A DNA stretch of 64,000 nucleotides from an uncultured Acidobacteriota bacterium (GTDB lineage Bacteria; Acidobacteriota; Terriglobia; Acidiferrales; UBA7541), in NCBI GenBank assembly GCA_963841605.1, contig CAWJDM010000016.1, positions 2,405 to 66,404 of the forward strand, written 5' to 3'. The translations under genes and the position numbers were made by a program. The notes under the pieces are model-generated. The model ran no database searches. It saw only the letters and a program-made list of their open reading frames with translations, and was not told where the DNA came from. This document shows positions 33,323-58,436 of the stretch, piece after piece (position 1 is the first letter of the stretch; each line of letters starts with the position of its first letter).

Positions 33323-33535
33323 GGTGGTTACCTCCTCGCAACGGCGGGCATCATACGCCAACCGGGTACGCAGAGACAAGCGTACGTCGATTCAAACTGG
33401 GAATCGCTGGAAGGGACCGGCTTTACCAGAACGGATACACGTGCGGTTGCCAGCGTTGACATTTGGAAGGTGCTTGGCAGAATGGGGCTACTCAGGGGAT
33501 GTCTGGAAGCTACCTGGAGCTGGGGAGGAACGACC

Positions 33536-34342
33536 TTGATTCTATTCAGGCGTGCTGGCGCGATTGGGCTCTGTTGTTTGCTTTGTGTTTTGCCGGTGAT
33601 GGGTCAGTCTCAATCGACCGGACAACGGGCCGGGCAGATCGACGCGATGATTCCGGCCGTTTCCGTGAACTCGCAGACGGCTCAGGTGAAAGAGCCGTTA
33701 CAGTGGAACGATCTGCTGGCCACGGCGCAAAACGGGCGAGTGCGCGCCGGCCTGCTGGACGGGTCACTCTTGAGCCTGGGTTCGAATAGCCAACTGCGCA
33801 TCGTGCGGCACGACGCCGCTTCGCAACAAACTTCGCTCGAGATGGATTACGGGAAAGTGCGAAGCCAGGTGCAAAAGATCACGAAGCCGGGCGGCAAGTT
33901 CCAAATCACGACGCCGAACGCAGTCATCGGCGTGATTGGGACCGATTTCGTAACCTTGTTCGAAAACGGCACCACGACCGTCATGTGCTTCCAGGGCCAA
34001 GTGTCCGTGACGCCGAGCGGGAACGCGCAGGCGGCCCAGAATACCGGGCAAACCAACGGAAATTCGATCACGTTGGGACCCGGTCAGATGGTTGTGATTG
34101 GCCCGGTGGTTCCTCCTGGAGGATTTCAAGTTGCGAAGACGCCGACGGGCTTGATGAACGCCGGCATTCTCGATACAGGTGTGATTCAGGGCGGGAACCC
34201 CGTGGCACGCGGCGGGCACGGATTGCGTTGGGGACTCATCACGGCGGGCGTGGCGCTCGGCGTGGGCGTCGGGATCGCCGTGGGAGAGCAAAGAAGCGGT
34301 AAGACTGGCACCTGCCCGGTTGGCGTGTCTACCTGCGGGTAG
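33536..34342 (+). CDS. FecR-domain secreted protein with C-terminal TM/Gly-rich tail
   Basis: Start set at TTG 33536, which has GGAGG 7 nt upstream and gives the signal peptide MILFRRAGAIGLCCLLCVLPVMG. ATG 33482 is the alternative start. FecR motifs (GSNSQLRI...TPNAVIGVIGTDFV). Confidence 0.7.
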   Translation: MILFRRAGAIGLCCLLCVLPVMGQSQSTGQRAGQIDAMIPAVSVNSQTAQVKEPLQWNDLLATAQNGRVRAGLLDGSLLSLGSNSQLRIVRHDAASQQTSLEMDYGKVRSQVQKITKPGGKFQITTPNAVIGVIGTDFVTLFENGTTTVMCFQGQVSVTPSGNAQAAQNTGQTNGNSITLGPGQMVVIGPVVPPGGFQVAKTPTGLMNAGILDTGVIQGGNPVARGGHGLRWGLITAGVALGVGVGIAVGEQRSGKTGTCPVGVSTCG

Positions 34343-34370
34343 CTTCTGCTGATTTCAAGCGCGATACGAC

Positions 34371-36786: not shown

Positions 36787-39700
36787 TCATTTCGCGGCGG
36801 ACTTCGGTGGGTCGAGCGTGACCGTGTAGACTTTGCCGTCTCGCATGTAGAGGCGTTCCGCTTCCTGATGATTGAATGGCCGCGAACCGCGCCGCCCGAA
36901 GACGGCGAGCTGGTTCCCGCTTTCGTCCGCGGCGCGATCGCGATCAACTCCCTTTGAAATTGCGAGCGCCGGTCCGTGCGTGCGATATGTCGCGATGAGC
37001 TTTGGCGTGGGGCGCGGGCTGAAGCCGTAGGAATTCGGCGAATCTTCGGGCGACATTAACTGAAGGATGCGCAGGCCGTTGCGTCCATCGGCGACGAAGG
37101 CGAACGCGCTGGCATCCACCATGCCGATTTTGGCGTCCGTGACATCGTTTAGCTTGCCATCGTCGGAAAAGAGCTGGTCGAGCTTCGGATGCTCGGGCTG
37201 CTCGACGTCGACGATCCCCACTCCCTGTTTTCCCGCGGAAACGTAGGCGTAGGTGCGCGCGACGTAGACGTTGCGCGCATCGGGGAATGGCACCAGCGCG
37301 CCCGGGACAATTCTCGGCTGATCCAGCGCGGTCACGTCGAGAACCTTCAGCCCTTGCTTATCGACGACGAAGGCGTAGCGGAACTGGACGTCGATGCCTT
37401 GCGGATCGACGAGCGTGGGGGCGCCGATTTCGGCGGTGACGCGCGGCTTCAGAGGATTATCGAGATCCACGACAACCAGGCCGCGGTCGCAAAGAATGTA
37501 GGCGTAGACGCCGGCGATCGTGATGCGGCGAGCGCCGTTCAAAATGCCGCCGGGATTAAATGCGAGCGCCCGCTTGAGAAAGTTGTTTCGCGGATCGCCG
37601 TCGAGCAGCGTGCTGACGCCGGGGCTTTTGCCTTTGACATTGGGATCGCCGACCACGACGAGGCCTTCGTATTTATCCGCCACGTAGAGGAACGCGTAGA
37701 GGGGATGGATTGGGCCTTCTTCGTTCTTCGGATTTTTCGAGCGCGCCGGATCGAGAGCGAGCGTCGACGGGCTGGCGACATCGGCCGCGTATTTCGTCTT
37801 CAGATAAAAACGCTGGCCGATGGGAGAAACGGGCGCCGTGACAACTTTTTCTGAGAAGCCCTTGTTGTCGATATTCGCGACGTCGTAGATGCGCAGGCCG
37901 CCTTTTCCGGTAGCAGCGTAGAGATACTCGCCGCGGAGCTGCACGTTGAGGACGTCGCCCTCGTGGTGGATGGCGTGCTTGAGCTGGCCCCCTTCGGCCA
38001 CGTGCTTGCGATAGTCGTCCGGATACGCGAGGCGCTGAAGATAGCTGCCGAAAATGGCTGGAGGCTCGTCGTGCTCCGCGGCGGCGACGGCGTCGAAGCC
38101 TTTTTTGCCTTCCGCCACATAAATATAGCGGCCCATGAAATTCACCAGATTCGTGCCCTGCAGCAAAACCTGCGCGAGCCACGCATTGTTGTCGTTCGCT
38201 GCAGTGAGGTGGCAATCGTCGCAGCCCTTCGTTTCTTTCGAGCGGACCGTGTGCGGGACAAACGTGCTGAACGCGGTGCCGGCAAAGCCTTCGGCTGAAA
38301 CGGTCTGCTGCATGTAGTAGAGCCACTCGCGATTCGCATTCTGCGAGCTGACGATGACGGCGCAGGTGGAGCGGGCGGGCGCGATGCGATGGCCCGTGAC
38401 GGTGCCGTCGATGCCGAGCATGAATCCGTCATCGCGGAGAACCTGGAAGGCGTAGCTGGTCCAATTGCGCGTGATCAAGCCTTCGTTGTGGAGCATGGGC
38501 TTGCGTTGATTCGCCATCATGGAGAGATGGCAGCCCCAGCAGTTGGTGGTCCATGAAGTGTGGCAGGCGTAGCAGGTCATTTTGCTATTGGGATGCGCGA
38601 GCTGAGATGAATCGGCGGGGACGCTGCCCCAAGTCTTGCCGTCGAGCTGAACCGTTTTCGCCCAGCGCGATTTTTCGCTGTAGTGCGGATTGCCGGGCGT
38701 GATCGTGTCAAGAGTTTGGACAACTTCCCACTCGAGATTGGGTTCGACCATCGACCGCTGGTAAAGCTTGCCGTCCCGCCATTCGAAGCGGCGCTCGCGC
38801 CACGGTGTGCGCAGAGTCTCAAGATGCGTGCCGCCATTGGGAGCGGCGGGTCCCGAGGTGATCAGCGTGGCGTGTTGGTCGATCGTGCCGTGGCAATCGA
38901 TGCAATCGAGTTCGATGGCCGCGCGCGGCTCGGCGTAGAGGTTGCCGTTGCCGTGATTATCCTGCTCGAAATGGCAATCGATGCACTGCATGCCTTTTTC
39001 GAGGTGAATGTCTTTCAGGTGGACGGCCTTAGCGAATTTCCGCGGATCATCGGGCGAGACGATTTTGTCGTCGGCGTCGAGCAGATTGCCCTTGCGATCG
39101 CGCTTGAAGACGGCGCGGAAGATCCATCCGTGGCTGTGGAAATCGGCGAACTGATCGGTTTTGAGCTTCTTATTGAATTCCGGCGTGCCAACTTGCTCGA
39201 GAAACTTCGGATCGGCCCAAAGACCCTTCGCGGCAGCCGGCTCCGGATTTCGCAGCGCAACCTGATATCGCTCCTCATCCGTCGGATTTTTCTGGTTCTT
39301 CGGATACATCAGCTCGCCGTCCGCCTCGTTGTCCCACCAGGTGTAGCCGAAGTAGGTCGTTTCCATGTTCGTGCCGGGATGGACATGGCAGACCATGCAC
39401 TGGCTCGAAGGAATCGCTCGCGTGAACGAGTGGCGAATCGGATGGCCCGACTCATTTTGGGAGATCGTGGGATCGGAGGTGACGGTATATCCCATGTTTC
39501 CGTACTTGGCGTACGGGCCGGAGTGGTCGGACGAGCGGTCGTTTGCGTAGACGACGTGGCACGCCGTGCAGCCGCTGGCACGATAATCGCCCGCTTCATC
39601 GTTGGTTCCGGGCAGGTACAGGAGCGGATCGAGGAGGCGCGTTTTTTGCAGGCCGAGGAAAACAGGATCGGTGCGCAGCTCGGTGCCGAAGCCGCGATCG

Positions 39701-40587
39701 CTCAACTTGTCGTCCGGGTGGCCGGATTCTTCCTCGCGATTCGGATTGCCGATCTCGCCCTTCTTTTCGCCGCCGCGCTCGAAGACGCGCAGGACGTTGC
39801 CGGGCTGCGAAATTTCCCACCGTTCGAGCGGGGCGATTTCCGGGAGGATGCCCTTGGCGCGCGTTTCCTCCGGCGTAGGAGGCGGCATCGTGAACACGGC
39901 CTGCGGCGTGCCGTCGGCCGAATAGCTCTCGCCGAAATGCGAATCCTTTAGAGGATACGCACCGTTGTTATAGAGGGCGGCGCCCCAGAGCAGGGAGCCC
40001 GTGGTCATCAGGCTGGTTTGCACGCGGCGGACTTCGCTCACGTGGCAGCCAGATTGGCCGCAGGTTTGCGGAGCGACGCGCAGATCGCCCGGATTGATGA
40101 ATCGAATGTAGTCATAGTTCTCGTGCAGCCATTCGGTGTAGGGGCGGACGGGATTCGCGGAGCTGCGCGCCCATTCGGGGATGGTGGACTTGGGATGCGC
40201 GCGATTTTTGGCGTCTTCGTACTGGGCGGAGCCCATCTGCGCGCCGGGAAGAACGTGAACGCTCGAATCTCCGCCGTGGCAATCGATGCAGGCGAGGCGG
40301 ACGGTGCCTGTCGGGTGCATCGTGGGCTGGTCCGTAGTCGTGTGGCAGCTCACGCAGCCCGCATTTTTTCGGTCGACATCCGCCTGGGATTGGCCCTCGG
40401 GGCTGGCCTGCAGCGCGTTTCTCTGCTGCGGCGGCTGTTGCGACGGCGGGGAATCTTCCGTTTGCGCACGCGATGCGGAATCTGCCACGAGCGCGAGACA
40501 CACGGCGGCGAGCAGCATCAGCAGCGGAAGAAACACACGCCGCGTCCGCCTGCTCGATCCGCGCATCGATTGGGCCAGAAAATCCAT
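36787..40587 (-). CDS. Secreted multihaem c-type cytochrome (9 CxxCH + 1 CX4CH) fused to a C-terminal LVIVD-repeat beta-propeller
   Basis: Signal peptide ([23 protein letters not shown]). Haem motifs CVSCH, CIDCH, CGQSGCH, CTACH, CMVCH, CIDCH, CIDCH, CYACH, CWGCH, CDDCH are spread over about 750 aa. The C-terminal ~400 aa carry LVIVD-type repeats ([68 protein letters not shown]). Confidence 0.85.
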
Positions 40588-43295: not shown

Positions 43296-44909
43296 ATGTG
43301 CAAGGCGCCGGCCCGCCGAAAGCCAAGGCCCACCGCGACTCGATGGATCCTGCTCTGTCTGCTGTTGTCCGCCGCGATGTGCGGTTGCGGCGGCGGTGGC
43401 AGCGGCGCGAGCGATCCCGGCCCGACGCAATATCCGCAGCCGCCTGCGGGTTCCGCGTACTTGACGCAGAGCGATGTGATGACGATCGTGCAGACCGCCG
43501 CCGCAACCGCCGATCCCAGCACCATGGCGATTGCGGTAACCGATCGGGTTGGGAACATTCTTGCAGTGTGGGAAGGCGCCGGCATGCCGGCGACATCCAC
43601 GGGAAATTTCGGGCAAGCCACTCCGACGGGCGAGCTGGCCGTGAATCTTGCCCGCACAGCTTCGTTTTTCAGCAACGATCAGGCGCCGCTTTCCTCCCGC
43701 ACTGTCCGCTACATTAGCGGCATTCATTTTCCCCCGGGCATCGCGAACACACCGAACGCCGCGCTCTACGGCATCGAGACTACGAATCGAGGCTGCACGC
43801 TATCCTCGAACTACCTTCCGGGGCAGGCGATCCCCGCGCCGACCACAATCAATGGATTGCCGGACCACTACGGGATTATCACGGGCAAGGCGGACGTTAA
43901 CGACAGCGACTCGACCGCCGTGAATCCGGGCGGCGTGCCCATTTTCAAGTCGGGCCACATCGTGGGGGGCGTGGGCATCGCGGGCGTGCCGCTCGACGTT
44001 GCGGAATTCGTTGCGTATACCGCAGCGGGGCTGATTGGCGTCTCGTCGGCTGACGCCGATGGGATCGGCTTTCAGCCGCTGCCCGCGCCGGGCGAAGTGG
44101 TGATCGACGGAATCGCGCTGCCGTTTGTCGATAATACGACACCGCCGAGCGACCTGACGCCGGCCACCGCGCCGTTTGATTCCTCGAGATACGTCTCGGG
44201 GCCGATCACGGATCCGATTGCCGGGCCGCTGCCCGAAGGCTACCTGGTGGGTCCCATGGCCGCGCCATTGGGCGGGCTCAGCGCGAGCCAGGTGGACAGC
44301 ATCATCCAGAACGCGGTGAATACGGCCGATCAGACGCGAGCGCTGATTCGTCTGCCTCCCGGCGCGCGGGCGCGCATGATGATCGCGGTCAGCGATCTCG
44401 ACGGGACGATCGTCGGCATGTACCGCATGCACGATGCGACCGTTTTCAGCATCGACGTGGCTGCCACCAAGGCGCGCAACGTGATCTATTTCAGCGGGCC
44501 GAATCGCACCGCCGGTGATTTGCCCGGCGTGCCGATGGGGACGGCAGTTACGAATCGCACGATCGGCTTTGGAGCGCAGCCGCTGTTTCCGCCGGGAATC
44601 AACGGATCGTCGCTGGGGCCGTTCTTTGGGCTTTACACATCGGATGCCGCGAACCCGTGCACCCAGGGCGCTGATACGGGGCCGAATCAGAGCGGCGTGG
44701 TGTTTTTCCCGGGCTCGGAGCCTCTGTACGTGAATGGAGTGCTGGTGGGCGGGCTGGGCGTTAGCGGGGATGGAGTCGATCAGGATGATTACGTCACGGC
44801 GGGCGGGGCCACGGGATATGCGCCGCCGGCGAGTATCCAGGCGGACCAGGTCGTGATCGACGGCGTTCGGTTGCCGTTCATGCATTTCCCGCGAAATCCG
44901 ACGGATTAG
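43296..44909 (+). CDS. Probable lipoprotein with two GlcG/HbpS-like (DUF336, haem-binding/'haem-degrading') domains
   Basis: ORF 42609..44909 trimmed to Met230 (AGGAG RBS; MCKAPARRKPRPTATRWILLCLLLSAAMCGCGGGG). Two DUF336 signatures (SGHIVGGVGIAGVPLDVAEFVA and NGVLVGGLGVSGDGVDQDDYV). Confidence 0.7.
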   Translation: MCKAPARRKPRPTATRWILLCLLLSAAMCGCGGGGSGASDPGPTQYPQPPAGSAYLTQSDVMTIVQTAAATADPSTMAIAVTDRVGNILAVWEGAGMPATSTGNFGQATPTGELAVNLARTASFFSNDQAPLSSRTVRYISGIHFPPGIANTPNAALYGIETTNRGCTLSSNYLPGQAIPAPTTINGLPDHYGIITGKADVNDSDSTAVNPGGVPIFKSGHIVGGVGIAGVPLDVAEFVAYTAAGLIGVSSADADGIGFQPLPAPGEVVIDGIALPFVDNTTPPSDLTPATAPFDSSRYVSGPITDPIAGPLPEGYLVGPMAAPLGGLSASQVDSIIQNAVNTADQTRALIRLPPGARARMMIAVSDLDGTIVGMYRMHDATVFSIDVAATKARNVIYFSGPNRTAGDLPGVPMGTAVTNRTIGFGAQPLFPPGINGSSLGPFFGLYTSDAANPCTQGADTGPNQSGVVFFPGSEPLYVNGVLVGGLGVSGDGVDQDDYVTAGGATGYAPPASIQADQVVIDGVRLPFMHFPRNPTD

Positions 44910-45407: not shown

Positions 45408-46814
45408 TTAGCCTTCGCGGAGCTTGTGGCTGGCCAGATTGCCGAGGCCGTCGTAGGCGGCGTACTTGTACATTTCCGAGAGCGTGGGGAAATTGAAGAC
45501 AAAGGCGATGAAGAGATCGATCGTGCCGCCTGCCTCAAGGACTGCCATTCCCGTGTGAATCAGCTCGGTGGCTTGTTCGCCGATGATATGAACGCCGAGC
45601 AGCTTGCGATCGTCGCGCCGGAAGAGCAGCTTCAGCAGCCCCGAGGTGTCGCCGACCATGGCGCCCCGCACGTTGTTTGCATAATGCGCGCGGCCAACTA
45701 CGTAGTCGATGTGATGCTCCCGGCAGGATTCTTCGCTTTCGCCGACAGCCGAAATTTCCGGAATCGTGTAAACGCCCATCGGAAGCTGCGAAGCGAGCCG
45801 CTTTTTGTAATCGAATCCGAAAGCGTGGCAGACGGCGACGCGGCCCTGCTCCATCGAAGTTGATGCGAGGGCGGGAAAGCCGATGACGTCGCCGGCGGCG
45901 TAGATGTGCGGGATCGAGGTCTGATACGACTCGTTGACGTCGATGTAGCCTCGCTGATTCAGCGTGAGCCCGATTTTTTCGAGGGCGAGGCCTTCGACGG
46001 TGCCGCGCCGGCCCGCGGCGAAGAGAACCGCGTCGGCATCGAGAATCTTTCCGGATTTGAGCTGCAAGCGCACGGCGCTCGAGGCGTGCTCGGTCTTGGC
46101 GACGCGCTCCTCGAGATAGCACTGAACGCCGAGCCCAGTCAGGCGCTCGCGCAAAAGCTTGCTCAATTCAGCATCGAGAAATGGTAGGAGACGATCGCGC
46201 CCATCGACCAGCGAGACTTTCACTCCGAGCGCCGTGAAGATCGAGGCGTACTCGCAGCCGATCACGCCGCCGCCCACCACGATCAGGCTTTGCGGCAGGC
46301 GGTCCATTTGCAAGATCGAGTCGGAATCGAAGATGGACTTGTCGTCGAACGGAATTTCGGCTGGGCGATGCGGGCGCGATCCGGTGGCGATCAGGATGAC
46401 GTCGCCCCGCAGCCGCTCCGGCGATTTCTTGGGAGACGCAACAGCGACCGTGTGCGGATCCTCGAAAGAGCCCGTGCCCCAGAAGACGTCGACGTGATGC
46501 GCCGCGAGATTCTTTTTGATTTCCTGGCGCTCGATTTCGACGAGAACGTTCTTGCGGTGCGTAAAACCCTCGACCGTGAGCCCTTCGCGCAAGGAATAGT
46601 CGATGCCGTATAGCCCGCGCTGCTTCAAGCCGGAAAAATAGAGCGCGGATTCGCGCAGGATTTTGCTGGGAATCGTCCCGGAATTAACGCACGCGCCGCC
46701 GGGCTCGGCCTCCGACTCGACGAGCGCGACACGTCTTCCGAAATACGCCGCTTGCGCCGCCGCCTTCTCTCCGGCCGGGCCGGAACCAATCACTACCAGA
46801 TCATAGGATTGCAC
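45408..46814 (-). CDS. sthA: Soluble Si-specific NAD(P)+ transhydrogenase
   Basis: YDLVVIGSGPAGEKAA FAD fold. GGACVNSGTIPSK has a single Cys, with Thr replacing the second redox Cys, as in SthA/UdhA and unlike lipoamide dehydrogenase CxxxxC. Second dinucleotide fold (LIVVGGGVIGCEYA). C-terminal dimerisation domain. Confidence 0.8.
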   Translation of the reverse strand: MQSYDLVVIGSGPAGEKAAAQAAYFGRRVALVESEAEPGGACVNSGTIPSKILRESALYFSGLKQRGLYGIDYSLREGLTVEGFTHRKNVLVEIERQEIKKNLAAHHVDVFWGTGSFEDPHTVAVASPKKSPERLRGDVILIATGSRPHRPAEIPFDDKSIFDSDSILQMDRLPQSLIVVGGGVIGCEYASIFTALGVKVSLVDGRDRLLPFLDAELSKLLRERLTGLGVQCYLEERVAKTEHASSAVRLQLKSGKILDADAVLFAAGRRGTVEGLALEKIGLTLNQRGYIDVNESYQTSIPHIYAAGDVIGFPALASTSMEQGRVAVCHAFGFDYKKRLASQLPMGVYTIPEISAVGESEESCREHHIDYVVGRAHYANNVRGAMVGDTSGLLKLLFRRDDRKLLGVHIIGEQATELIHTGMAVLEAGGTIDLFIAFVFNFPTLSEMYKYAAYDGLGNLASHKLREG

Positions 46815-46844
46815 AGGGCCTCCGAAATTCGGAATCGCATTCCA

Positions 46845-49544
<2,700 letters not shown>

Positions 49545-49550
49545 CGGTGC

Positions 49551-50951
49551 TCAGGGGAGCAGTGCGCTTACGTCGTGCATCTGGTGGGCGAAGCGGTTGG
49601 CATCGTAGCTCGACGGAATCTGCAATTGGTCGAAGAGCCCGGCGATGGCCGCGCGCACCTGCGGTGCGTTGGCAGGTTTCTCGTTGCGATCGTAGGCGAC
49701 GAAGAGCGATTGCAGAGCCATGGCCGCTTGCGCGGCGGCGTGTTCGTCCTGATTCGAAATGCTGTCGGCATCCGAGCAGATGCGCTGAAGGACGCGGAGC
49801 GTGAGCGCGCGATCGTAAGGCATCGTGTCGAATTTCGTGGCGAGTTGATCGGCAAGCTGCGCGGAAGTGGTTGCCGCAGCGGCCACGGCGTTGCGATCGG
49901 GGTTCAACGTGCTCATCAATTTTGTTACCTGCAAAATGTCGGAGTCGAGACTCTGCGCGTCCGCCGGATCGGCCTCGCGCACGATTTCGCGGAATACGAC
50001 GTAGCGCGAAGCATTCCAGGGAGGATCGCCGGGGCGGCGGTCGGGATAGCCGCGCGCTTGCCGCCAGCTCTGCTCCGCAGGGCCGAGCGAGTGATGGCAC
50101 GCGTAGCATTCGAGCTGCGAATATTCGGGCCAATTGGTGCTGCGAGTCTGATCCGCAAGCTGCAGGAGAGACTGGCGGAGCTGCACGGCTTGCCCCGCGG
50201 ACCATTCGCGGACCTCATACCACTGGTCGGTTCCTTCGGCTTCACCCGGTTCGCCGGGCTCGCTCCAGTGGCGGGGCATCGATGCGGAGAAGGAATCGAG
50301 CTCGAAGTAAAGATCGGGATGTCCTGCGGCGATCATTTGGTGATCGACAAACTTTTCCTTGCTGCCAAGATGGCAGGAGAGGCATTTGTCAGTGCGCAGA
50401 GCGACGTCGCGCAGGTCCGTCATGCCGGCCTGCACGGATTGCGCGTGCGTCCAATTGCGTTCGGTGTGATGGCCGAGCCATGCGGAGGCAGGTCCGTGGC
50501 AGCTCTCGCAGCTCACGCCCTCGCTGAGATCGAAGGTGCGGGCGCGGTCGGCAGCGGGCACATCCAGCGCGTGACACGCGAGGCATTTCGGCGCATTCTC
50601 GGCCTTGCCGATATTCAAGATCGCGGCCATGCGTTCGCCGACCATTCCGGTGAGCGCCTGATAGGCCTTCGAGTGCTTGTCGCGCACGATCCAGATGCTG
50701 TATTCGTTCTGCTTGACGCGATTGTCGGTGCGCGGGGCGATGCTGCCGTGGCAGCTGGTTGAGCTGCAGGATCCGGGCCCCGTGTATTGATGGGGCTCAT
50801 CGGCGGCGGGCTCGGCCGGGCCATTCGGCGGAGCGGCAAGCGCGCGGGATCGGAAGGCCGAAGGAAACACTGCGAGCGCGGCCAGCGCGGCGGCGAGCGC
50901 CAACGAAGCTCCGGCGAAGCGCGTCTTTGTTCCGTCCATCCTCAGTTTCAT
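49551..50951 (-). CDS. Secreted multihaem c-type cytochrome (4 CxxCH + 1 CX4CH) with helical non-haem C-terminal domain
   Basis: ORF 49551..50987 trimmed to Met13 (MKLRMDGTKTRFAGASLALAAALAALAV); Met17 is also possible. Motifs CSSTSCH, CLACH, CESCH, CLSCH, CYACH. 6 nt upstream of the GH63-like gene. Confidence 0.8.
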   Translation of the reverse strand: MKLRMDGTKTRFAGASLALAAALAALAVFPSAFRSRALAAPPNGPAEPAADEPHQYTGPGSCSSTSCHGSIAPRTDNRVKQNEYSIWIVRDKHSKAYQALTGMVGERMAAILNIGKAENAPKCLACHALDVPAADRARTFDLSEGVSCESCHGPASAWLGHHTERNWTHAQSVQAGMTDLRDVALRTDKCLSCHLGSKEKFVDHQMIAAGHPDLYFELDSFSASMPRHWSEPGEPGEAEGTDQWYEVREWSAGQAVQLRQSLLQLADQTRSTNWPEYSQLECYACHHSLGPAEQSWRQARGYPDRRPGDPPWNASRYVVFREIVREADPADAQSLDSDILQVTKLMSTLNPDRNAVAAAATTSAQLADQLATKFDTMPYDRALTLRVLQRICSDADSISNQDEHAAAQAAMALQSLFVAYDRNEKPANAPQVRAAIAGLFDQLQIPSSYDANRFAHQMHDVSALLP

Positions 50952-51218
50952 CTTCGGTTCAGCTGGTCGGAGCGCATCGCCACCCACGCGAGCGGCGACA
51001 AACCGCCTGAAATGTGGCTGTCTCGACGCTTATAGTATCGGCTTCCGTCGCAATGTCAACGACGAGGTCGGCCGGGTACAAGACATGTTTCCATATTCAG
51101 TTGGGCTGTGGACGGATTCGCGAGTCTTGCTATACACTCTTGCACGACTCGCCGTCTTGGCTGGTCTCGCAGTCGACTTGACACGGAATCGCCACAGACA
51201 TTCTGGGGAGAATACAGG

Positions 51219-52934
51219 TTGATCGTTCAGGAACTGAGAGCGGTCCAGTCCCAGTTTGGATTCCTGCCCGCCGATCAGCTTCAGGCGCTGGCCAAGAAGA
51301 TTAACGTCCCGATCACGCGCCTCCACCAGGTTGCCAGCTTCTTCCCGCATTTTCGTCTCACGCCTCCGCCGAAAGCGGACGTGCGCATTTGCCGCGACAT
51401 GTCGTGCCATTTGCGCGGCGGGGATCGCGTGCGGATGAACCTTGAGGAGCGATTCAAGGGCGCGAGCGAGCAGGAAGTGACGATTCGCGGCGTCTCGTGC
51501 CTGGGGCAGTGCGATCATGCGGTCGCGGTTTCGATCAACGACCGGGTATTCGCTCCGGCGGATGAGGCGCGCGTCGAGCAGATTATTCGCGACGTGCTGC
51601 TGCAGGGGGAATTGCCGCAAGCCGCCCACCGCGAGGCCGGCGTCGAGTGCGCGTCGAATCCATACGCGGGCGGCGAGCGATATGGCGCCGTGCGGCGGCT
51701 GGTGGAATCGCGCGGATGGAACGCGGCGCTCGAAGCGCTGAAGTCGGCTGGGCTGCGCGGGCTGGGCGGCGCGGGTTTTCCGACGGAAATGAAGTGGCAG
51801 CTAGTCCGGCAGCAGCCCGGAAACGAAAAATACATCGTGTGCAACGCGGATGAGAGCGAGCCGGGCACATTCAAGGACCGATTCATTCTGACCCACCTTC
51901 CTTTCCTCGTGATCGAAGGAATGATCATCGCGGGGCTCATTACCGGCGCGCGCAAGGGGATTCTCTACATCCGCCACGAATACGAGGCGCAGGAACACCT
52001 TTGCGAACAGGAGATTCGCCGCTGCTACGAGGCGGGCCTGCTGGGATCGAAGATTCTTGGCACGGATTTGGCGTTCGATCTCGAGGTTTTCGTCAGCCCC
52101 GGCGGATACATCTGCGGGGAAGAGAGCGCGCTGCTTGAGGCGATCGAAGGGAAGCGGGCGGAGCCGCGCAACAAGCCTCCGTTTCCGGGGCAGCAGGGCC
52201 TTTGGAACAAGCCGACCGTAATCAATAACGTCGAAACGTTTGCGCACGTCCCGCAGATTCTGGTGCGCGGCGTGGAGTGGTACAAGGCGCAGGGCGTCGG
52301 CGGAACGGCGGGACTGAAATTTGTTGGCGTGAGCGGCGATATCGAAAAGCCGGGCGTGTACGAGCTGCCAATGGGAACGCCGATGTCGGAGCTCATTTTC
52401 AAAAGAGCAGGAGGCGTGCGCGGCGGCAAAAAGTTGAAGGCATTTGCGCCTTCAGGGCCGTCGTCCGGCTATCTTCCGGCTTCGATGGTCGACGTGCATC
52501 TCGATTTCAAGTCGCTTGCGGATGCGGGCTCGATGCTGGGCTCGGGCGCTGTGGTGGTCTGCGCCGAGGGAACCTGCATGCTGGATATGGCACTGAGCGC
52601 GACGCAATTCTTTCGCAACGAATCCTGCGGCAAGTGCGTGCCGTGCCGCGTTGGCTCGCAAAAGATGGTCGATATTCTGGCGGGGTGGTCGCAGGGGCGA
52701 GGGGCGGAAGAAGACCTTGCGCTCGTGCAGGAGCTCTCGCAGTCGATGGTGCTGACTTCGATTTGCGGGCTCGGGCAAGTGGTGCCCGCGCCGATCGGCT
52801 CCGTGCTGAAATATTTTCGCGAGGAAGTTGAGGCGCATATCACGCGGCACGAATGTCCGTCGGGCATCTGTTTTTCTGATGCGCCCGCCCGCAGCGCGCC
52901 CGCAGCGGCCGCGGCTGTTCCGAGGTTGCTATGA
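51219..52934 (+). CDS. NuoE-NuoF fusion-type NAD(P)H dehydrogenase (FMN, 2Fe-2S, 4Fe-4S) subunit, HoxF/FdsB-like
   Basis: Start set at TTG 51219 (GGGGAG 8 nt upstream) within ORF 51108..52934. NuoE-like 2Fe-2S (CRDMSCHLRGG...CLGQCDHAVAV). NuoF FMN/NADH site (GLRGLGGAGFPTEMKW). N3 cluster (ESCGKCVPCRVG). Confidence 0.85.
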   Translation: MIVQELRAVQSQFGFLPADQLQALAKKINVPITRLHQVASFFPHFRLTPPPKADVRICRDMSCHLRGGDRVRMNLEERFKGASEQEVTIRGVSCLGQCDHAVAVSINDRVFAPADEARVEQIIRDVLLQGELPQAAHREAGVECASNPYAGGERYGAVRRLVESRGWNAALEALKSAGLRGLGGAGFPTEMKWQLVRQQPGNEKYIVCNADESEPGTFKDRFILTHLPFLVIEGMIIAGLITGARKGILYIRHEYEAQEHLCEQEIRRCYEAGLLGSKILGTDLAFDLEVFVSPGGYICGEESALLEAIEGKRAEPRNKPPFPGQQGLWNKPTVINNVETFAHVPQILVRGVEWYKAQGVGGTAGLKFVGVSGDIEKPGVYELPMGTPMSELIFKRAGGVRGGKKLKAFAPSGPSSGYLPASMVDVHLDFKSLADAGSMLGSGAVVVCAEGTCMLDMALSATQFFRNESCGKCVPCRVGSQKMVDILAGWSQGRGAEEDLALVQELSQSMVLTSICGLGQVVPAPIGSVLKYFREEVEAHITRHECPSGICFSDAPARSAPAAAAAVPRLL

Positions 52935-55102
52935 GCTCGACGCCCATCATCGACCTCACGATCGACGGCAAGAAAGTATCCGTGCCACAGGGCACGACCG
53001 TGTTTGACGCCGCCCGGCTGAACGGGATTGCGATTCCAACGCTTTGCCATCAGCAGAACGAGACGCCAGTGGGGGTTTGCCGCGTGTGCGTGGTGGATGC
53101 CGGAGGGCGCGTGCTGAGCGCCTCGTGCGTTCGCCCCGCCGAAAATGGCATGAACGTGAGCACGGCTTCCGACAAGGTGCAGGGCGCACGGCGCACGCTC
53201 GTCGAGCTGCTGATGTCCGATCACACGAGTCCGTGCGCGCGGCAGCAGCATACGGGCGATTGCGAGCTCGAAACGATGGCGCGTCAGATGGGCGTGACGC
53301 AGCCGCGCTTTCCGCGACGGTCGAGCGGGCGCACGAAGGATGATTCGTCGCCGAGCATCGCCGTCGATTTCGACGCGTGCATCTTGTGCGACCGGTGCAT
53401 CCGCGGGTGCAACGAAATCCGCCACAACGGCGTGCTGGGCCGCATGGGCAAGGGCGGAACGGCCGGCATCGCGTTCGATAACAACTTGCCGATGGGCAAT
53501 TCGTCGTGCGTGTCGTGCGGCGAGTGCATGGTTTCGTGCCCTACGGGCGCGCTGACGAACAAGATCGCCGCCGGGACGGCGTTTGCGGCGGGCGCGGGCG
53601 CCGATCACGTGAGCGTCGAGGAGCTCGAGCAGCTCAGCGTCTTCAAAGGTGTTTCGGGCACGTTCTTGAGTTTGAATCGGGGCGCGGTGGTGCGGCGAAA
53701 ATTCCGGCCCGGCGACGTGATCTGCCGCGAGGGCGAATACGGTTCGACGGCGTTTTACATCCTCGAAGGGAAAGTGCGCGTTTCGATTTCGAGCCCCATC
53801 GCGCACGTGAAAACCGGCGGCGGATCGCACGGATTGCTCAGCAAGCTGACGAGCGCGCTCGTACGGCGCAAGGAAGACCAGCGCGAGGAGGAGACGAGCC
53901 AGCGATTCATCCCGATTGATGCTCCCGTGGATCTCGCATATGAAAATCCCGTCGGGGAGCTGGGCCCTGGCGACCTTTTCGGCGAGATGACGTGCATGAG
54001 CCTCTATCCGCGTTCGGCGACCGTGCGCGCGGAGACGGATTGCACGATGCTCGAAATGCTGCGCAACGTGCTCGACATCCTGCAGCGCAACAAGAATTTC
54101 CGCGCGCAGCTCGAGAAATCCTACCGGCAGCGCGCGCTGGACAGCCACTTGCGCGGCATACCCGTGTTTGCGTCGCTGCCAGACGACTTTCTGGCGAGCT
54201 TGCGCGATCGCGTCGAGCTGGTGCGATACGGGCCGGGCGAGGTGATTTGCCGGCAAGGCGAGATCGCCAACAGCTTCTATCTCGTGCGCATCGGATTCGT
54301 GAAAGTGTCGCAAGAGCATCCGGGCGGCGAAATGGTGCTGGCCTATCTCTCGCGCGGCGATTATTTCGGCGAGATTGGATTGCTCGAAGGCGACGTGCGC
54401 ACGGCGACGTGCACGGCGCTCGATCACGTGGAGCTGGTGCGGATTTCGGGCGACGATTTCAGCGATATGGTGTCGAGGTTCCCGGAGATTCGCAGCAAGC
54501 TGCAGGCGGTGGAGCACGAACGGTTGCAGCAGAACCGGCAGCGGATGTCGCTGGTGCAGAGCTTGCCGCTCGATACGTTTCTCGCGCGCGGTTTGATGGA
54601 GGCGCAAAGCCTGCTGCTGCTCGATCTCGACCGCTGCACGCGGTGCGATGCCTGCGTGCGCGCTTGCGCGGATGCCCACGACGGAGTGACGCGGCTGGTG
54701 CGCGATGGGCTGCGCTTCGACCGCTATCTCGTGGCAACGTCGTGCCGGCAATGCCGCGATCCGCTGTGCATGGTCGGATGCCCCGTGGGCTCGATCCGGC
54801 GGCGAAATACGCTCGAGGTGATCATTGAGGATTGGTGTATCGGCTGTGGGCTGTGCGCGAAAAATTGCCCCTACGGCAATATCAATCTGCACCCGTTCGA
54901 GGTGATGACCGACGATCCGGAGCGGCCGGGACGCAAGAAGGCGACGGTGAGCCAGAAGGCGACCTCGTGCGATTTGTGCACCGAGCATGCGGAGCCGAGC
55001 TGCGTGTACGCATGCCCGCACGACGCGGCGCATCGCGTGGATCCAACCAAGTTTTTCGAGGGAATTCTAGGAGCGGGGCAGGCTGGGGCGCGCGACCGCT
55101 AG
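52931..55102 (+). CDS. Fusion: NuoG-N-terminal/HoxU-like FeS module + two cyclic-nucleotide-binding domains + four-cluster (DmsB/NrfC-type) polyferredoxin
   Basis: ATGA overlap with the upstream gene. aa 1-215: 2Fe-2S (CHQQ...CRVC...C), His-ligated cluster region (DHTSPCARQQHTGDC), CILCDRCIRGC and CVSCGECMVSCP. aa ~232-385 and ~405-515: cNMP domains with intact phosphate-binding cassettes (FGEMTCMSLYPRSATVRA; FGEIGLLEGDVRTATCTA). aa ~565-705: CTRCDACVRAC, CRQCRDPLCMVGCP, CIGCGLCAKNCP, CDLCTEHAEPSCVYACP. Confidence 0.85.
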   Translation: MSSTPIIDLTIDGKKVSVPQGTTVFDAARLNGIAIPTLCHQQNETPVGVCRVCVVDAGGRVLSASCVRPAENGMNVSTASDKVQGARRTLVELLMSDHTSPCARQQHTGDCELETMARQMGVTQPRFPRRSSGRTKDDSSPSIAVDFDACILCDRCIRGCNEIRHNGVLGRMGKGGTAGIAFDNNLPMGNSSCVSCGECMVSCPTGALTNKIAAGTAFAAGAGADHVSVEELEQLSVFKGVSGTFLSLNRGAVVRRKFRPGDVICREGEYGSTAFYILEGKVRVSISSPIAHVKTGGGSHGLLSKLTSALVRRKEDQREEETSQRFIPIDAPVDLAYENPVGELGPGDLFGEMTCMSLYPRSATVRAETDCTMLEMLRNVLDILQRNKNFRAQLEKSYRQRALDSHLRGIPVFASLPDDFLASLRDRVELVRYGPGEVICRQGEIANSFYLVRIGFVKVSQEHPGGEMVLAYLSRGDYFGEIGLLEGDVRTATCTALDHVELVRISGDDFSDMVSRFPEIRSKLQAVEHERLQQNRQRMSLVQSLPLDTFLARGLMEAQSLLLLDLDRCTRCDACVRACADAHDGVTRLVRDGLRFDRYLVATSCRQCRDPLCMVGCPVGSIRRRNTLEVIIEDWCIGCGLCAKNCPYGNINLHPFEVMTDDPERPGRKKATVSQKATSCDLCTEHAEPSCVYACPHDAAHRVDPTKFFEGILGAGQAGARDR

Positions 55103-55157
55103 GCGCAGTTTCATTAGGCCGCCGGAAACAACAGAATCGCCGCCACGGATTTCGAAC

Positions 55158-56045
55158 GTGCGCATCGATAGCACACATAAGAAGTGGCTGATCGCGTCGC
55201 TCATCATTTTCGTCGTGGCGACGGCGGTCTACATTCCCTACGCCGCGGCGTCTCCTTACGGGCCAAGCGGCGCGAGCGCGATCGGGCTTACATTTGGGAT
55301 TGTCGGCTTCGCGTTCATGATTTTTGCGGGGCTGCTGGGTGCGCGCAAACGGTTTCCCGTCTGGCGCGTCGGGCGCGCACAGGCATGGATGCGCGGGCAC
55401 CTGTGGCTAGGCGTGCTGAGTCTGCCGCTAATTTTCTTTCACAGCGGGTTTCGGTTTGGCGGACCGCTGACGGCCGCGCTGATGGTGCTGCTGATTGTGG
55501 TGGTGGTGAGCGGCGTGTTCGGCGCGGTGCTGCAGCACTATTTGCCCGCGGTGATGACCGAGCAGGTGCCGCTCGAGACGATCTTCGAGCAGATCGATCG
55601 CGTGCGAGGCCAGTTGCTCGAGGAAGCGGATCAGACAGTCGCCCGCGTGGTGGCGCTGGTGGCTCCTCTCGTGACGGCAACACCCACGCGCGTGGCGATG
55701 GCGACCGAGGAAGCTGCCGCAATCACGGAAGCGGATATTGCGCCACTGCGCGCGTTCTACGATCGCGAGATGCGGCCATTCGCCGAGAAACCGGATGCGC
55801 GTGGCTACGCGCTTGCGGACACGGCCAAGGCGCGAGCGATGTTTGCAGGGCTGCGCACGCTGATGCCGCCTGCGGTTCACGAATCCGTGAAAGACCTCGA
55901 GGATATCTGCGAGGAAGAGCGCGAACTGCGGCGGCAGGTGCGTCTCCATCACTGGCTGCACGACTGGCTGCTATTTCATATTCCGCTGTCGTTCGCGCTG
56001 CTGCTGCTGGGCGCGGTGCACGCCGTGATGGCGCTGCGGTACTGA
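55158..56045 (+). CDS. His-rich five-TM membrane protein with ~130-aa soluble helical insert (candidate haem-b carrier)
   Basis: GTG start. TM helices carry conserved-looking His residues (MRGHLWLGVLSLPLIFFHSGF; GAVLQHYL; LHHWLHDWLLFHIPLSFALLLLGAVHAV). No family recognised. Confidence 0.6.
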   Translation: MRIDSTHKKWLIASLIIFVVATAVYIPYAAASPYGPSGASAIGLTFGIVGFAFMIFAGLLGARKRFPVWRVGRAQAWMRGHLWLGVLSLPLIFFHSGFRFGGPLTAALMVLLIVVVVSGVFGAVLQHYLPAVMTEQVPLETIFEQIDRVRGQLLEEADQTVARVVALVAPLVTATPTRVAMATEEAAAITEADIAPLRAFYDREMRPFAEKPDARGYALADTAKARAMFAGLRTLMPPAVHESVKDLEDICEEERELRRQVRLHHWLHDWLLFHIPLSFALLLLGAVHAVMALRY

Positions 56046-56103
56046 GCCGCAGATGGCGGCGGTGTAGAGCGATTTTGCAATTGTTTCTGCTACGAGAGGC
56101 ATT

Positions 56104-57538
56104 GTGCCGCGAGAGAAGCGCACCACCAAAACCGTCGCGAAGCGCATCGACCTGAACTATTTCAAGCGGCCGAGCCCGTGGCGGCGGTGGCGCTTCGCGC
56201 TGTCGGTCGCGCTGCCGTGCCTGGCGGTAGCGTGGCTCGCGGCGTATGGCGTGACACGCAACAATCACGCGTACAGCAGCGGCAAGATGTCGCCCGCGCA
56301 CGCGGTGCTCACGCGGCAGTGCAATGCGTGCCATTTCTCGCGCGCGGGCTCCTTCCGCGCGACTGCGACCGATCAGGCGTTGCCTTGCGTGCCACGACGG
56401 GCCGATTCACCACGCGGGTCAGGTGTTCACGCCGAGCTGCGCATCGTGCCACGTCGAGCATCGAGGACGAATGCGCCTTGCGGCGACAGCCGATCAGAGC
56501 TGCACGCAATGCCACGCGAATTTGCGCACGAACGGCAAGGCAACGTCCTACGTGACCCACGTTACGGCATTCACTTCCGGGGGGCATCCGGAGTTCGCGC
56601 CTTTGCGCGCCGGGTTCCGCGATCCCGGAACGATCAAGCTCAACCATGCCATTCACCTGAAGGCCAGCCTCCTGGGACCGAATGGCACCCGAGTGCAAAT
56701 GACGTGCGATGACTGCCATCGCGCGAACGCCGCGGATCAATCCTGGAGATTCGGCGCGGCGCCGGCTTCGCAATCGCAGTCGCCTTCGTCGATGGCAGCA
56801 AACGCGACGGCGGGCGCGATGATGCCGGTTTCGGCGCCGCGCATGTTTCCGCCGTCCTATTCGCCGGCGCGCGCGTACATGCAGCCGATTTCCTATGCGA
56901 GGCACTGCATCGGCTGCCATCCGCTGCTTTTCGACAAGCGCTTCACCGATAGCGTGCCGCACGACACGCCGGAAGTGATTCACGCGTTTCTGGTGAAGCG
57001 ATACACGGAGTACATCGCGACGCATCCAGCGGAATTGCGGGAGACGAAGTCCACGATGGCGTTGCCGGCGAGACCAGTGCCGATTTCGCCGCGCATCTAT
57101 ACGCCGCCGGAATGGGTCAACACGCGCGTGGCCGAGGCGGAGAATCTGCTGTGGCGCAAGACCTGTAAAGAGTGTCATGCGCTGTCATCCCTGCCGAGCG
57201 CCCAGCCCGCTCCGATGATGCTGCCAGGGGCGTTGCCCAAAGTCGCGAAGTCGAATATCCCCGTGCGCTGGTTCCCGGACGCCGAATTCGATCACCAGGC
57301 GCACCGCGCGTGGACTTGCACCACCTGCCACCCGCGCGCGACGACGAGCCAGGAGACGGCCGATATTCTTGTGCCGGGTGAGAAGACGTGCGAGCAGTGC
57401 CATCACCCGGGCGCGGATGCAGCCGAAGCGCGCTGCTTCGAGTGTCACGCCTATCACGACTGGAGCCGCGAAAAGCCGGTGAAAGGCACGCCGCACTTTT
57501 CGTCGTGGATGCAAATTGCGCAAAGGCCGGCATCTTAG
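56104..57538 (+). pseudogene. Membrane-anchored decahaem c-type cytochrome, interrupted by a +1 frameshift (extra T at 56380/56381); could equally be a sequencing error
   Basis: Frame of ORF 56104..56712 gives an N-terminal TM anchor (WRFALSVALPCLAVAWLAAYG) and CNACH, then loses sense. Frame of ORF 56324..57538 carries CLACH, CASCH, CTQCH, CDDCH, CIGCH, CKECH, CTTCH, CEQCH, CFECH. Deleting one T of the TT at 56380-56381 joins them as ...ATDQACLACHDGPIHH... (477 aa). Confidence 0.7.
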
Positions 57539-57556
57539 CCTAAGTGCGCACGGAAT

Positions 57557-57574
57557 GCTGGGTCGCCACCCAGC
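57557..57574. terminator. Hairpin between convergent genes (cytochrome vs fdhE)
   Basis: gctgggt-cgcc-acccagc (7-bp stem) in the 67-nt convergent spacer. No clear U-tract on either strand. Confidence 0.3.
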
Positions 57575-57605
57575 GCCCCGCCGTTACAAAGGCCAACCAA
57601 CAGCT

Positions 57606-58436
57606 CTAGATTCCCAGGAGATTTGTCTGCAGCTTGGTGTAGCCGTGCTCGGTGGCCCAGAGATTCAGCGGGATTGTGGCAAGTTCGTCGACGACAGGTA
57701 GCGCGAGGCCATTTTTCGACAGGTCGACGGTCTTGATGTAGCTGTGGCACGAGTCGCACGCCTCGACGCGCACGTGGCCAAACTCCTCCGCCGTGTAGAC
57801 GGCAAGTTTGTGCGGATTTTCCTCGCCGCACGACGGGCAAACGACGCGGCGATAATCCCATTCGTGGGCGCATAGCGCGCAGATCAGCGATCTCTTCGCG
57901 CCGTCGCCTTCCGGGCGCAAGACTCCCACCTGCGGTTTGGTGCCGCAGACGGGGCAGTGCGATGGCGTGGCGTGAATCGGGTATTGGCGCGTGTGGTCGG
58001 CAAGATACTCGGCGTAGGGTTGGAGAAAAGTCCAGGCGATTAGCTCTTCCGCGGCGTCGAGACCGGTCGCGCCATCTTCCTCGGTCCCGCTAGGTGCATC
58101 CTGCCAAAATCCGAGCAGCAAGTCCTGCAAGCGGCTCGCATCGCCGGCGCGCAGCTCGCGAGCGGTTTGCGCGAGCGGCGCGGGGGCATCTTCCTCGATC
58201 TGCGAAAGAAAGAACGGGAATAGCGGCACCAGCAGAGACGAATCAAATTCGCCGCGAAGCTTGCCCTGGGGCCGCGTGTGCATTTCCGCGCCGCAAGCTG
58301 CCTCGATTCGCGCATAGAGCTGCTTTTGGGCCTTCGCGACAGCGCGGTAAAAGAGCAGCCCTTCGGATGCAAAAGGGTGGCTCGAAGCGAGATCTTCCGC
58401 GCGGCGAATCCGCGCGTCCCATTTGGCGGGTTTCAT
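57606..58436 (-). CDS. fdhE: Formate dehydrogenase accessory protein FdhE
   Basis: ORF 57606..58493 trimmed to Met20, whose ATG overlaps the fdnI stop (tcat at 58433-58436). Four CxxC pairs (CPVCG, CALCAHEW, CPSCG, CDSCHSYIK) as in FdhE. Confidence 0.85.
   Translation of the reverse strand: MKPAKWDARIRRAEDLASSHPFASEGLLFYRAVAKAQKQLYARIEAACGAEMHTRPQGKLRGEFDSSLLVPLFPFFLSQIEEDAPAPLAQTARELRAGDASRLQDLLLGFWQDAPSGTEEDGATGLDAAEELIAWTFLQPYAEYLADHTRQYPIHATPSHCPVCGTKPQVGVLRPEGDGAKRSLICALCAHEWDYRRVVCPSCGEENPHKLAVYTAEEFGHVRVEACDSCHSYIKTVDLSKNGLALPVVDELATIPLNLWATEHGYTKLQTNLLGI

Follow-up and report, generated by a model that had tools for sequence, protein, structure and literature searches.

The window examined here is a stretch of 64,000 nucleotides from an uncultured Acidobacteriota bacterium (contig CAWJDM010000016.1), and the analysis centres on one of its genes, called the target below, which encodes a protein that joins in a single chain an iron-sulphur (FeS) module like that of HoxU, two cyclic-nucleotide-binding (CNB) domains and a ferredoxin with four clusters. 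The gene is preceded by one for a fused NuoE-NuoF protein and followed by genes for a membrane protein and a multihaem cytochrome; the coordinates are collected in Table 1. The evidence suggests that the target is the FeS connector subunit, regulated by a cyclic nucleotide monophosphate (cNMP), of a pathway leading from reduced nicotinamide adenine dinucleotide (NADH) to periplasmic cytochromes, a reading to which we give about an even chance of being right. The conserved multi-gene context is more important here than the domain architecture itself, and an earlier reading of this DNA from its letters alone (the sequence-only reading) overlooked the partners that define the system: the NuoE-NuoF protein, a membrane protein that putatively holds two b haems, the multihaem cytochromes and the cyclases linked to these genes.

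That reading had described a three-part architecture consisting of an FeS module, a pair of CNB domains and a ferredoxin with four clusters, and this is borne out by matches to Pfam and NCBIfam. In Pfam, the 2Fe-2S domain is recognized with 64.7 bits, Fer4 dicluster domains fall at residues 141-211 and 599-700, and the cNMP_binding family (PF00027) scores 139.3 bits (E 4e-41) against a cut-off of 27.5, in three stretches that make up two domains. The NCBIfam models for HoxU (173 bits), NuoG and [FeFe]-hydrogenase match residues ~6-213 only, those for HydN, DmsB and DsrO match residues ~560-710, and the CRP model covers residues 423-556 alone, which belong to the CNB part. Pfam searches at E values up to 0.01 found neither HTH_Crp_2 nor any other helix-turn-helix (HTH) or output domain in the target, and no membrane segment is predicted in it. 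A Crp/Fnr regulator is ruled out by the lack of an HTH, and a mis-assembled Crp regulator by the recurrence of the identical fusion in hundreds of contigs. Transcriptional control by the target, which had been doubted from the outset, is indeed unlikely, since no output domain was found in the protein. Its gene is embedded in an electron-transfer operon. An open reading frame (ORF) of 854 codons on the opposite strand (52469..55033, minus strand) is a shadow ORF of the kind typical of DNA with 63% GC.

The conservation of individual residues was evaluated over 373 homologues aligned to the family profile, comprising 120 from an Acidobacteria clade, 119 from a Planctomycete clade and 134 diverse representatives at 50% identity. 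The four ligand cysteines of the 2Fe-2S domain are invariant in both clades (120/120 and 119/119), as are, across homologues, the cysteines of the two CxxCxxCxxxC motifs at residues 150-160 and 193-203. The His-ligated N5-type 4Fe-4S site that lies between these elements is degenerate, with one ligand missing: the score for the Pfam family NADH-G_4Fe-4S_3, 26.6 bits, falls just short of the cut-off of 27, Gln stands in place of the middle Cys of the canonical HxxxCxxCxxxxxC pattern, every one of the 120 Acidobacteria-clade homologues has Gln or Glu at this position (105), and the Planctomycete clade has lost both C102 and C111. The original description of a NuoG-N-terminal-type module with 2Fe-2S and 4Fe-4S clusters consequently holds for the 2Fe-2S domain and the two ferredoxin-type motifs, and fails at the N5-type His site. 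At the C-terminus, four near-invariant Cys groups (C569-579, C605-617, C636-646 and C680-695) follow the patterns CxxCxxCxxxC, CxxCx4CxxxCP, CxxCxxCxxxCP and CxxCx7CxxxCP, with all four present in the DmsB-type order. Judged from these ligand patterns, the target probably carries seven, possibly eight, FeS clusters, and not the full NuoG complement, the N5-type motif being incomplete.

An AlphaFold model of the target, built from an alignment of 78 sequences, has a mean predicted local distance difference test (pLDDT) score of 70.6, with values of 80-92 in the N-terminal module, 77-92 in the two CNB barrels, which are eight-stranded with the strands in the expected order, and 50-65 in the C-terminal ferredoxin, which was modelled cofactor-free. 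Foldseek superimposes the N-terminal module on those of HydA, FdsA and HoxU with a root-mean-square deviation of ~2 Å over ~208 residues, and places the middle of the protein on the tandem CNB domains of PKA-R/PKG (E 1e-17); in a sequence search of the PDB, the best match to the CNB tandem is PKG I (3shr, E 3e-23). With confidently predicted beta-barrels and a Pfam score far above the cut-off, the CNB regions are true domains, as had been proposed.

The two phosphate-binding cassettes, FGEMTCMSLYPRSATVRA at residues 350-367 and FGEIGLLEGDVRTATCTA at residues 479-496, had been described as canonical and ligand-competent in appearance, and the alignment agrees, because their Gly-Glu and Arg-Ser/Thr-Ala elements are near-invariant across phyla. 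In cassette 1, whose length is canonical in all homologues aligned, G351, E352, R361, A363 and T364 are kept in 119-120 of the 120 Acidobacteria-clade sequences, 117-119 of the 119 Planctomycete-clade sequences and at least 115 of the 134 diverse representatives; in cassette 2, G480, E481, R490 and A492 are kept in 118-120/120 and 114-119/119 of the two clades, respectively. The nucleotide-contacting residues appear to be under strong purifying selection, because they are near-invariant despite an overall identity between the clades of only ~45%. The 45-residue insertion reported earlier in the first CNB domain is present, at residues 286-330, but is not special to this protein. The Gly-to-Gly segment that contains it is 72 residues long in CNB1 (Gly280-Gly351), compared with 26 in the CNB2 equivalent, and across the family its median is 66-72 and its range 22-161 residues; the insertion is absent from the homologues P0140 and P0153. 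It is a variable loop found family-wide and, to judge from the model (Table 1), probably disordered. The linker from CNB2 to the ferredoxin is also conserved (F550, L551, G554, L555, Q559, L561 and L562). Three cysteines within the CNB domains, C265 (window positions 53723-53725), C355 inside cassette 1 (53993-53995) and C494 (54410-54412), are nearly invariant across phyla and foreign to canonical CNB domains, a pattern which suggests that redox sensitivity or metal binding is possible.

The gene linkage of the target is also conserved. The NuoE-NuoF gene, whose product contains the domains 2Fe-2S_thioredx, Complex1_51K, SLBB and NADH_4Fe-4S, lies directly upstream of the target in 82/82 Acidobacterial loci and in every locus examined from other phyla, including one (L090) in which NuoE and NuoF are split into two genes that are still immediately upstream; this pairing is the only universal linkage of the target among the loci examined. 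Within the Acidobacteria, the membrane protein accompanies the target in 82/82 loci, the decahaem cytochrome in 74/82 and the c554-like cytochrome in 68/82. These genes also occur, differently ordered, in the Planctomycete-clade loci L084-L088 and L090, and four independent loci of that clade hold orthologues of all of them. A promoter and terminator scan of positions 50700..57800 found promoter-like sites at chance level and 9 terminator-like sites, only slightly more than the 5.9 +/- 2.3 of shuffled sequences.

Table 1. Positions in the window of the target gene, its parts, its conserved partners and other neighbouring genes.
Feature	Position	Strand	Evidence or remark
CHASE2 class III nucleotide cyclase, candidate ligand source	34371..36731	+	orthologue of cluster-adjacent cyclases
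Secreted LVIVD-repeat protein, 1265 aa, 9 CxxCH	36787..40587	-	51-53% identical to target neighbours in L084 and L088
Conserved partner of LVIVD protein, 846 aa	40600..43143	-	48% identical to Planctomycete-clade counterparts
HbpS-like protein, conserved neighbour	43440..44909	+	homologues recur near the cluster
Secreted c554-like cytochrome, 4 CxxCH + 1 CX4CH (pentahaem)	49551..50987	-	divergent, upstream of NuoEF
Fused NuoE-NuoF (2Fe-2S, FMN/NADH site, 4Fe-4S)	51108..52934	+	stop overlaps target start (ATGA)
Target: HoxU-like FeS module, two CNB domains, four-cluster ferredoxin	52931..55102	+	723 aa, ATG start
Target, 2Fe-2S domain, residues 7-80	52949..53170	+	Pfam Fer2_4; ligands C39/50/53/66
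Target, vestigial N5-type site, residues 87-126	53189..53308	+	H98-x3-C102-x2-Q105-x5-C111; Pfam below cut-off
Target, ferredoxin-like domain, two 4Fe-4S motifs (Cys 150/153/156/160 and 193/196/199/203)	53351..53563	+	Pfam, Cys pattern, Foldseek
Target, CNB domain 1, residues ~230-400	53618..54130	+	cassette 1 at 53978..54031
Target, CNB1 variable insertion between beta4 and beta6, residues 285-330	53783..53920	+	pLDDT <50 at residues 289-340
Target, CNB domain 2, residues 401-545	54131..54565	+	cassette 2 at 54365..54418
Target, DmsB/HydN-like ferredoxin, four Cys groups (16 Cys, residues 569-695)	54611..55060	+	Pfam, NCBIfam, Cys pattern
Membrane protein, 295 aa, 5 transmembrane segments, putative dihaem-b transmembrane wire	55158..56045	+	H81/H95, H274/H288
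Membrane-anchored decahaem cytochrome c, 10 CxxCH	56104..57541	+	frameshifted by an extra G at 56379

The membrane protein encoded directly after the target has features that are consistent with a haem-bearing wire. Its two His pairs, which are of the His-x13-His type (13 residues apart) and lie at matching depths in the third and fifth transmembrane segments (TM3 and TM5), are invariant from the Acidobacteria to the Planctomycete clade, and a positively charged loop and a domain of 140 residues are predicted to face the cytoplasm. Its family, which has no Pfam domain, is large, with 4594 matches, nearly all of them annotated as "hypothetical". The decahaem gene follows downstream of the membrane protein gene, and its product is anchored at the N-terminus.

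A possible source of the ligand is also linked to the cluster. Among the loci fetched, this linkage takes several forms: in 12 Acidobacterial loci, a CHASE2 class III cyclase gene directly follows the decahaem gene, and the cyclase of the window, 16 kb upstream of the target, is an orthologue of those 12; in the Planctomycete-clade locus L090, a different cyclase lies directly downstream of the target, and in L084 another is found 7 kb away. The window cyclase has the metal-binding motif FSDIRGFT and, at the substrate-specifying positions, a Lys/Thr pair, which we take to be a signature of the adenylate-cyclase type that suggests cyclic adenosine monophosphate (cAMP) as the product. In the window, the cyclase gene is preceded by one for a FecR-domain protein (the two spanning 32453..36731, plus strand), and the same pair is found directly beside the cluster in locus L001.

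The pathway that these observations suggest would begin at the HoxU-like N-terminal part of the target, whose one 2Fe-2S and two 4Fe-4S clusters would dock on NuoE-NuoF and take electrons from NADH via flavin mononucleotide (FMN). The DmsB-like C-terminal part, with four 4Fe-4S clusters, would hand the electrons on, and the likely acceptor at this locus would be the adjacent membrane protein, whose two His pairs would hold two stacked b haems that span the membrane. From there, electrons would pass to the anchored decahaem and secreted pentahaem cytochromes, and probably to the large multihaem protein with LVIVD repeats. The CNB tandem, which lies between the two FeS parts, would bind cAMP, probably supplied by the linked CHASE2 cyclase. 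In CNB proteins, ligand binding shifts the C-terminal hinge and lid helices; in the model and the alignment of the target, the CNB2 helices at residues 507-543 continue into the conserved linker and then into the ferredoxin, and their movement would reposition the two FeS parts so that flow from NADH to the periplasm is switched on or off. The flow is expected to be directed outward: electrons leaving NADH in this direction run downhill in redox potential, and they are also helped by the membrane potential, since negative charge is carried away from the negative inner face towards the outer, positive one, whereas both forces would oppose the reverse flow. A switch makes sense here because an ungated path would drain NADH and the membrane potential. 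In this scheme we infer cofactor occupancy, haem b binding, the identity and binding of the ligand, gating and the direction of flow; the domain content, fold, residue conservation and gene linkage on which it draws are observed.

Several findings weigh against this scheme, and some of them lend support to other explanations. The inter-domain geometry of the AlphaFold model is unreliable (predicted template modelling score 0.49), and a literature search found no experiment or paper on ligand binding or gating in the target family. The haem b assignment of the membrane protein is founded on the His pattern together with a sub-threshold Pfam match (Ni_hydr_CYTB, 22.7 bits against a cut-off of 30.1), and a Foldseek search of the model of this protein (pLDDT 69.8) against the PDB gave no match at E values up to 0.001. 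In the window, moreover, the decahaem gene is split into two ORFs, 56104..56712 and 56324..57538, because it carries one base pair more than its counterparts in L003 and L004, two loci of 97% identity; removal of the extra base restores a protein of 478 residues with all 10 CxxCH motifs, and the frameshift reflects either a true pseudogene or a mistake in the assembly.

A further difficulty is that two loci (L083, of Methylomirabilota, and L089) hold the NuoEF-target pair only, without membrane or cytochrome genes, so that the downstream acceptor is not universal. These loci favour the idea that the pair constitutes a soluble, regulated diaphorase, that is, a cytoplasmic oxidoreductase between NADH and ferredoxin or an unknown acceptor, for which the membrane protein and cytochromes are frequent neighbours but not obligate partners, and in which the CNB domains would tune activity, such as NADH turnover or oligomerization, and not an intramolecular electron gap. 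The idea gains from the fact that the NuoEF pairing alone is universal and that the target is predicted to lack membrane segments, but it would leave to coincidence the clustering of five orthologous genes in two phyla despite rearranged order. Such a coincidence is unlikely, and we consider a soluble diaphorase unlikely as well.

The second CNB domain also presents a difficulty, in that the Planctomycete clade carries 9-42 extra residues within cassette 2. Together with the long insertion of CNB1 and the unusual invariant Cys355 inside cassette 1, these insertions could be taken to mean that the CNB domains act as structural spacers, or that they bind a ligand other than cAMP or cyclic guanosine monophosphate (cGMP), with no second-messenger control. 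The reuse of CNB folds for other ligands is known (Kannan et al. 2007, PMC2246266; PMC10959531). Instances are CooA for haem, NtcA for 2-oxoglutarate and the trypanosome PKA for nucleosides. The re-purposed families carry non-canonical cassettes, however (Table 1 of PMC2246266), whereas those of the target are canonical. When this is set beside the near-invariance of the Gly-Glu and Arg-Ser/Thr-Ala residues and the cyclase genes that repeatedly adjoin the cluster, the spacer or other-ligand explanation is improbable.

The remaining difficulty comes from relatives with other architectures. In two of them (P0139 and P0161), an FHA domain replaces the HoxU-like part in front of the CNB domains and the ferredoxin, which hints at a signalling role. 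Accordingly, the protein could be imagined as a sensor instead of a conduit, whose FeS clusters report the NADH/NAD+ ratio or the redox state, whose CNB domains report cAMP, and which controls a partner by contact, without bulk electron flux. The fusion of the CNB-ferredoxin unit to phosphopeptide-binding FHA and to NUDIX domains would fit such a role, as would the conserved cysteines inside the CNB domains. Seven or eight wire-like clusters and a full NADH/FMN input far exceed the needs of sensing, however, no recognizable output domain was found in the target, and its gene is tightly linked to those of the cytochromes, so that a pure sensor seems highly improbable.

Comparison with known systems places the regulated connector more precisely. 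The set of NuoE, NuoF and HoxU/NuoG N-terminal domains is shared with the HoxEFU diaphorase of NAD+-reducing [NiFe] hydrogenases and with FdsGBA, HydABC and Nqo1-2-3, and the N-terminal module of the target aligns with HoxU (5xf9_B) with a TM-score of 0.80, normalized to HoxU, and also with HydA (7q4w) and FdsA (6tg9). By this resemblance, the target would act as a connector of the HoxU/NuoG type. Unlike those systems, it has no hydrogenase, molybdopterin or H-cluster domain, has the CNB pair and the four-cluster ferredoxin instead, and is one Cys short of HoxU at the His-ligated cluster site. Identity with HoxU itself is ruled out by the score, which falls below the equivalog cut-off of 333 bits, by the lack of HoxY/HoxH among the annotated neighbours and by the incomplete N5 site. 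No hydrogenase genes were found among those neighbours, and a hydrogenase is rejected as well. Complex I is ruled out too, as NuoB/C/D/H/I and antiporter-like subunits were not found among the annotated genes of the window or of related loci, and a bifurcating NuoF of the Bfu type (HydB/NfnB) is ruled out because the upstream NuoE-NuoF protein lacks extra ferredoxin-like FeS domains.

The C-terminal ferredoxin has the four Cys groups of DmsB, NrfC, HybA and HydN in the same order and spacing, with weak matches to HydN, DmsB, DsrO and FDH3-beta. The scores stay below the cut-offs (Fer4_11, 21.1 against 26.2; HydN, 51.7 against 260; DmsB, 45 against 214), and the operon, in which the ferredoxin is fused to CNB domains, contains no molybdoenzyme partner, no Mo/W-bisPGD or [NiFe] subunit and no NrfD-type anchor. 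A DmsB-type molybdoenzyme subunit is ruled out by these sub-cut-off scores and by the lack of such a catalytic subunit in the operon. The CNB tandem resembles CNB-A/CNB-B of PKA-R/PKG in its two consecutive barrels, long joining helix and canonical cassettes, and differs in that it regulates no kinase, is flanked by FeS modules on both sides and has a loop insertion of ~46 residues in CNB1.

Fused CNB domains regulate several bacterial proteins that do not bind DNA, including the Pat acetyltransferase, channels and the family 2B encapsulin. Mycobacterial Pat and the 2B encapsulin are both matched by the target in NCBIfam via its CNB part, and a family in which CNB is joined to a pyridine-nucleotide-disulphide oxidoreductase ("Bact_Pyrredox") is a redox-enzyme fusion (PMC2246266), but in none of these do CNB domains lie between the two FeS modules of a subunit that transfers electrons. 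Among the CNB families surveyed in 2007, none is FeS-linked (PMC2246266), and a literature search for CNB domains placed within an FeS subunit of this kind found no described case.

In NADPH oxidases, ferric-reductase-domain proteins and MsrQ, electrons pass from cytoplasmic NAD(P)H through two transmembrane b haems to an acceptor outside. The overall logic proposed for the cluster is similar, as are the His pairs, spaced by 13 residues, that the 295-residue protein has on TM3 and TM5, but there is no detectable kinship in sequence or fold, the FMN and the long FeS chain are on separate subunits, and the acceptors are multihaem cytochromes.

The target fusion is not a chance product. Among the matches listed, at least 120 full-length homologues of the window protein have 73-96% identity to it, and all are named "cyclic nucleotide-binding domain-containing protein"; at least 240 are full-length with 49-96% identity to the query that found each of them. 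When the cluster representatives at 50% identity were searched exhaustively, 1719 matches lay below 1e-30, and of the best 150 of these, ~65 have the HoxU-like part, two to four CNB domains and the ferredoxin, while ~60 have the CNB domains and ferredoxin without the HoxU-like part. A genome scan gave 584 matches, but one of its two patterns, located within the HoxU-like domain, can also catch ordinary HoxU/NuoG genes; family members were counted from the scan as the 80 listed full-length loci only, which represent 80 species-level Acidobacteriota genomes (67-97% identity), the window protein being 97% identical to the copies of two Candidatus Acidiferrales metagenome-assembled genomes. A divergent clade comprises Planctomycetota, including a protein annotated from Roseiconus nitratireducens, and Methylomirabilota. 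The architecture, which the sequence-only reading had thought unusual, is therefore not rare but common in these three phyla; the family is large and diverse, and no characterization of it was found, so that of the earlier proviso that this might prove a common and already characterized family, the first half is true. In addition to the FHA variants, one relative (P0184) is a single chain of 1483 residues in which NuoE-NuoF is fused to the whole HoxU-CNB-ferredoxin architecture, and another (P0194) has an added NUDIX domain; the CNB-CNB-ferredoxin unit is thus a mobile module that has been joined to FHA, NUDIX or NuoE-NuoF-HoxU.

A more ambitious proposal, which we put forward tentatively and regard as possible but doubtful, is that the genes encode a new quinone-independent complex for respiration or electron export, running from NADH through FMN, FeS clusters and two b haems to the deca- and pentahaem cytochromes and the LVIVD protein, gated by cAMP in its FeS subunit and fed by an envelope-sensing CHASE2 cyclase. 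Bacterial respiratory chains are, as far as is known, mostly controlled through transcription or by substrate and product, and if the proposal is correct, a second messenger would act as a physical gate within an electron-transfer chain, the cyclic-nucleotide receptor in the FeS wire being a fast post-translational switch that acts directly on electron flow. If NADH electrons crossed the membrane by a path independent of quinones, both reducing power and membrane potential would be dissipated. The gene cluster is widespread among bacteria of soil and water, and members of the family abound in Acidobacteriota and Planctomycetota, which are dominant and poorly understood environmental phyla; the family's conserved partners point to an unrecognized periplasmic or extracellular redox activity. 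As one annotated relative comes from a named species, R. nitratireducens, experiments should be possible.

The cluster belongs to a wider island. The genes for the LVIVD protein, its 846-residue partner and the HbpS-like protein lie 8-16 kb upstream of the target in the window, and orthologues of this group are found beside the cluster in Planctomycete-clade loci and in at least 24 Acidobacterial loci, the LVIVD protein and its partner being better conserved between the clades than the target itself. The LVIVD protein, possibly the terminal, catalytic member of the pathway, has a weak match to the ExtM cytochrome and no match in a sequence search of the PDB. The HbpS-like gene occurs near the cluster in 20 sequences (19 loci and the window), those of the Planctomycete clade included.

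Downstream of the cluster, a convergent operon (57606..~63000, minus strand) encodes a periplasmic formate dehydrogenase of the FdnGHI type with FdhE, whose alpha subunit has a twin-arginine translocation signal (MEVTRRAFLK) and an in-frame TGA at the classic selenocysteine position, in the context ENQARV*HGPT. A link of the target to this enzyme is ruled out, because, of the loci fetched, only L003 and L004, together with the window, have formate dehydrogenase genes next to the cluster; the nearby FdnG has its own FdnH. On the upstream side, a pyridine-nucleotide-disulphide oxidoreductase gene (45408..46814, minus strand) recurs near the cluster in 14 loci, and a gene for a GH63-like glycoside hydrolase (46845..49544, minus strand) lies in the window between the oxidoreductase and HbpS-like genes and the cluster. 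An ORF of 1336 codons (46752..50762, plus strand), which has no Pfam match and overlaps genes of the opposite strand, is another high-GC shadow ORF.

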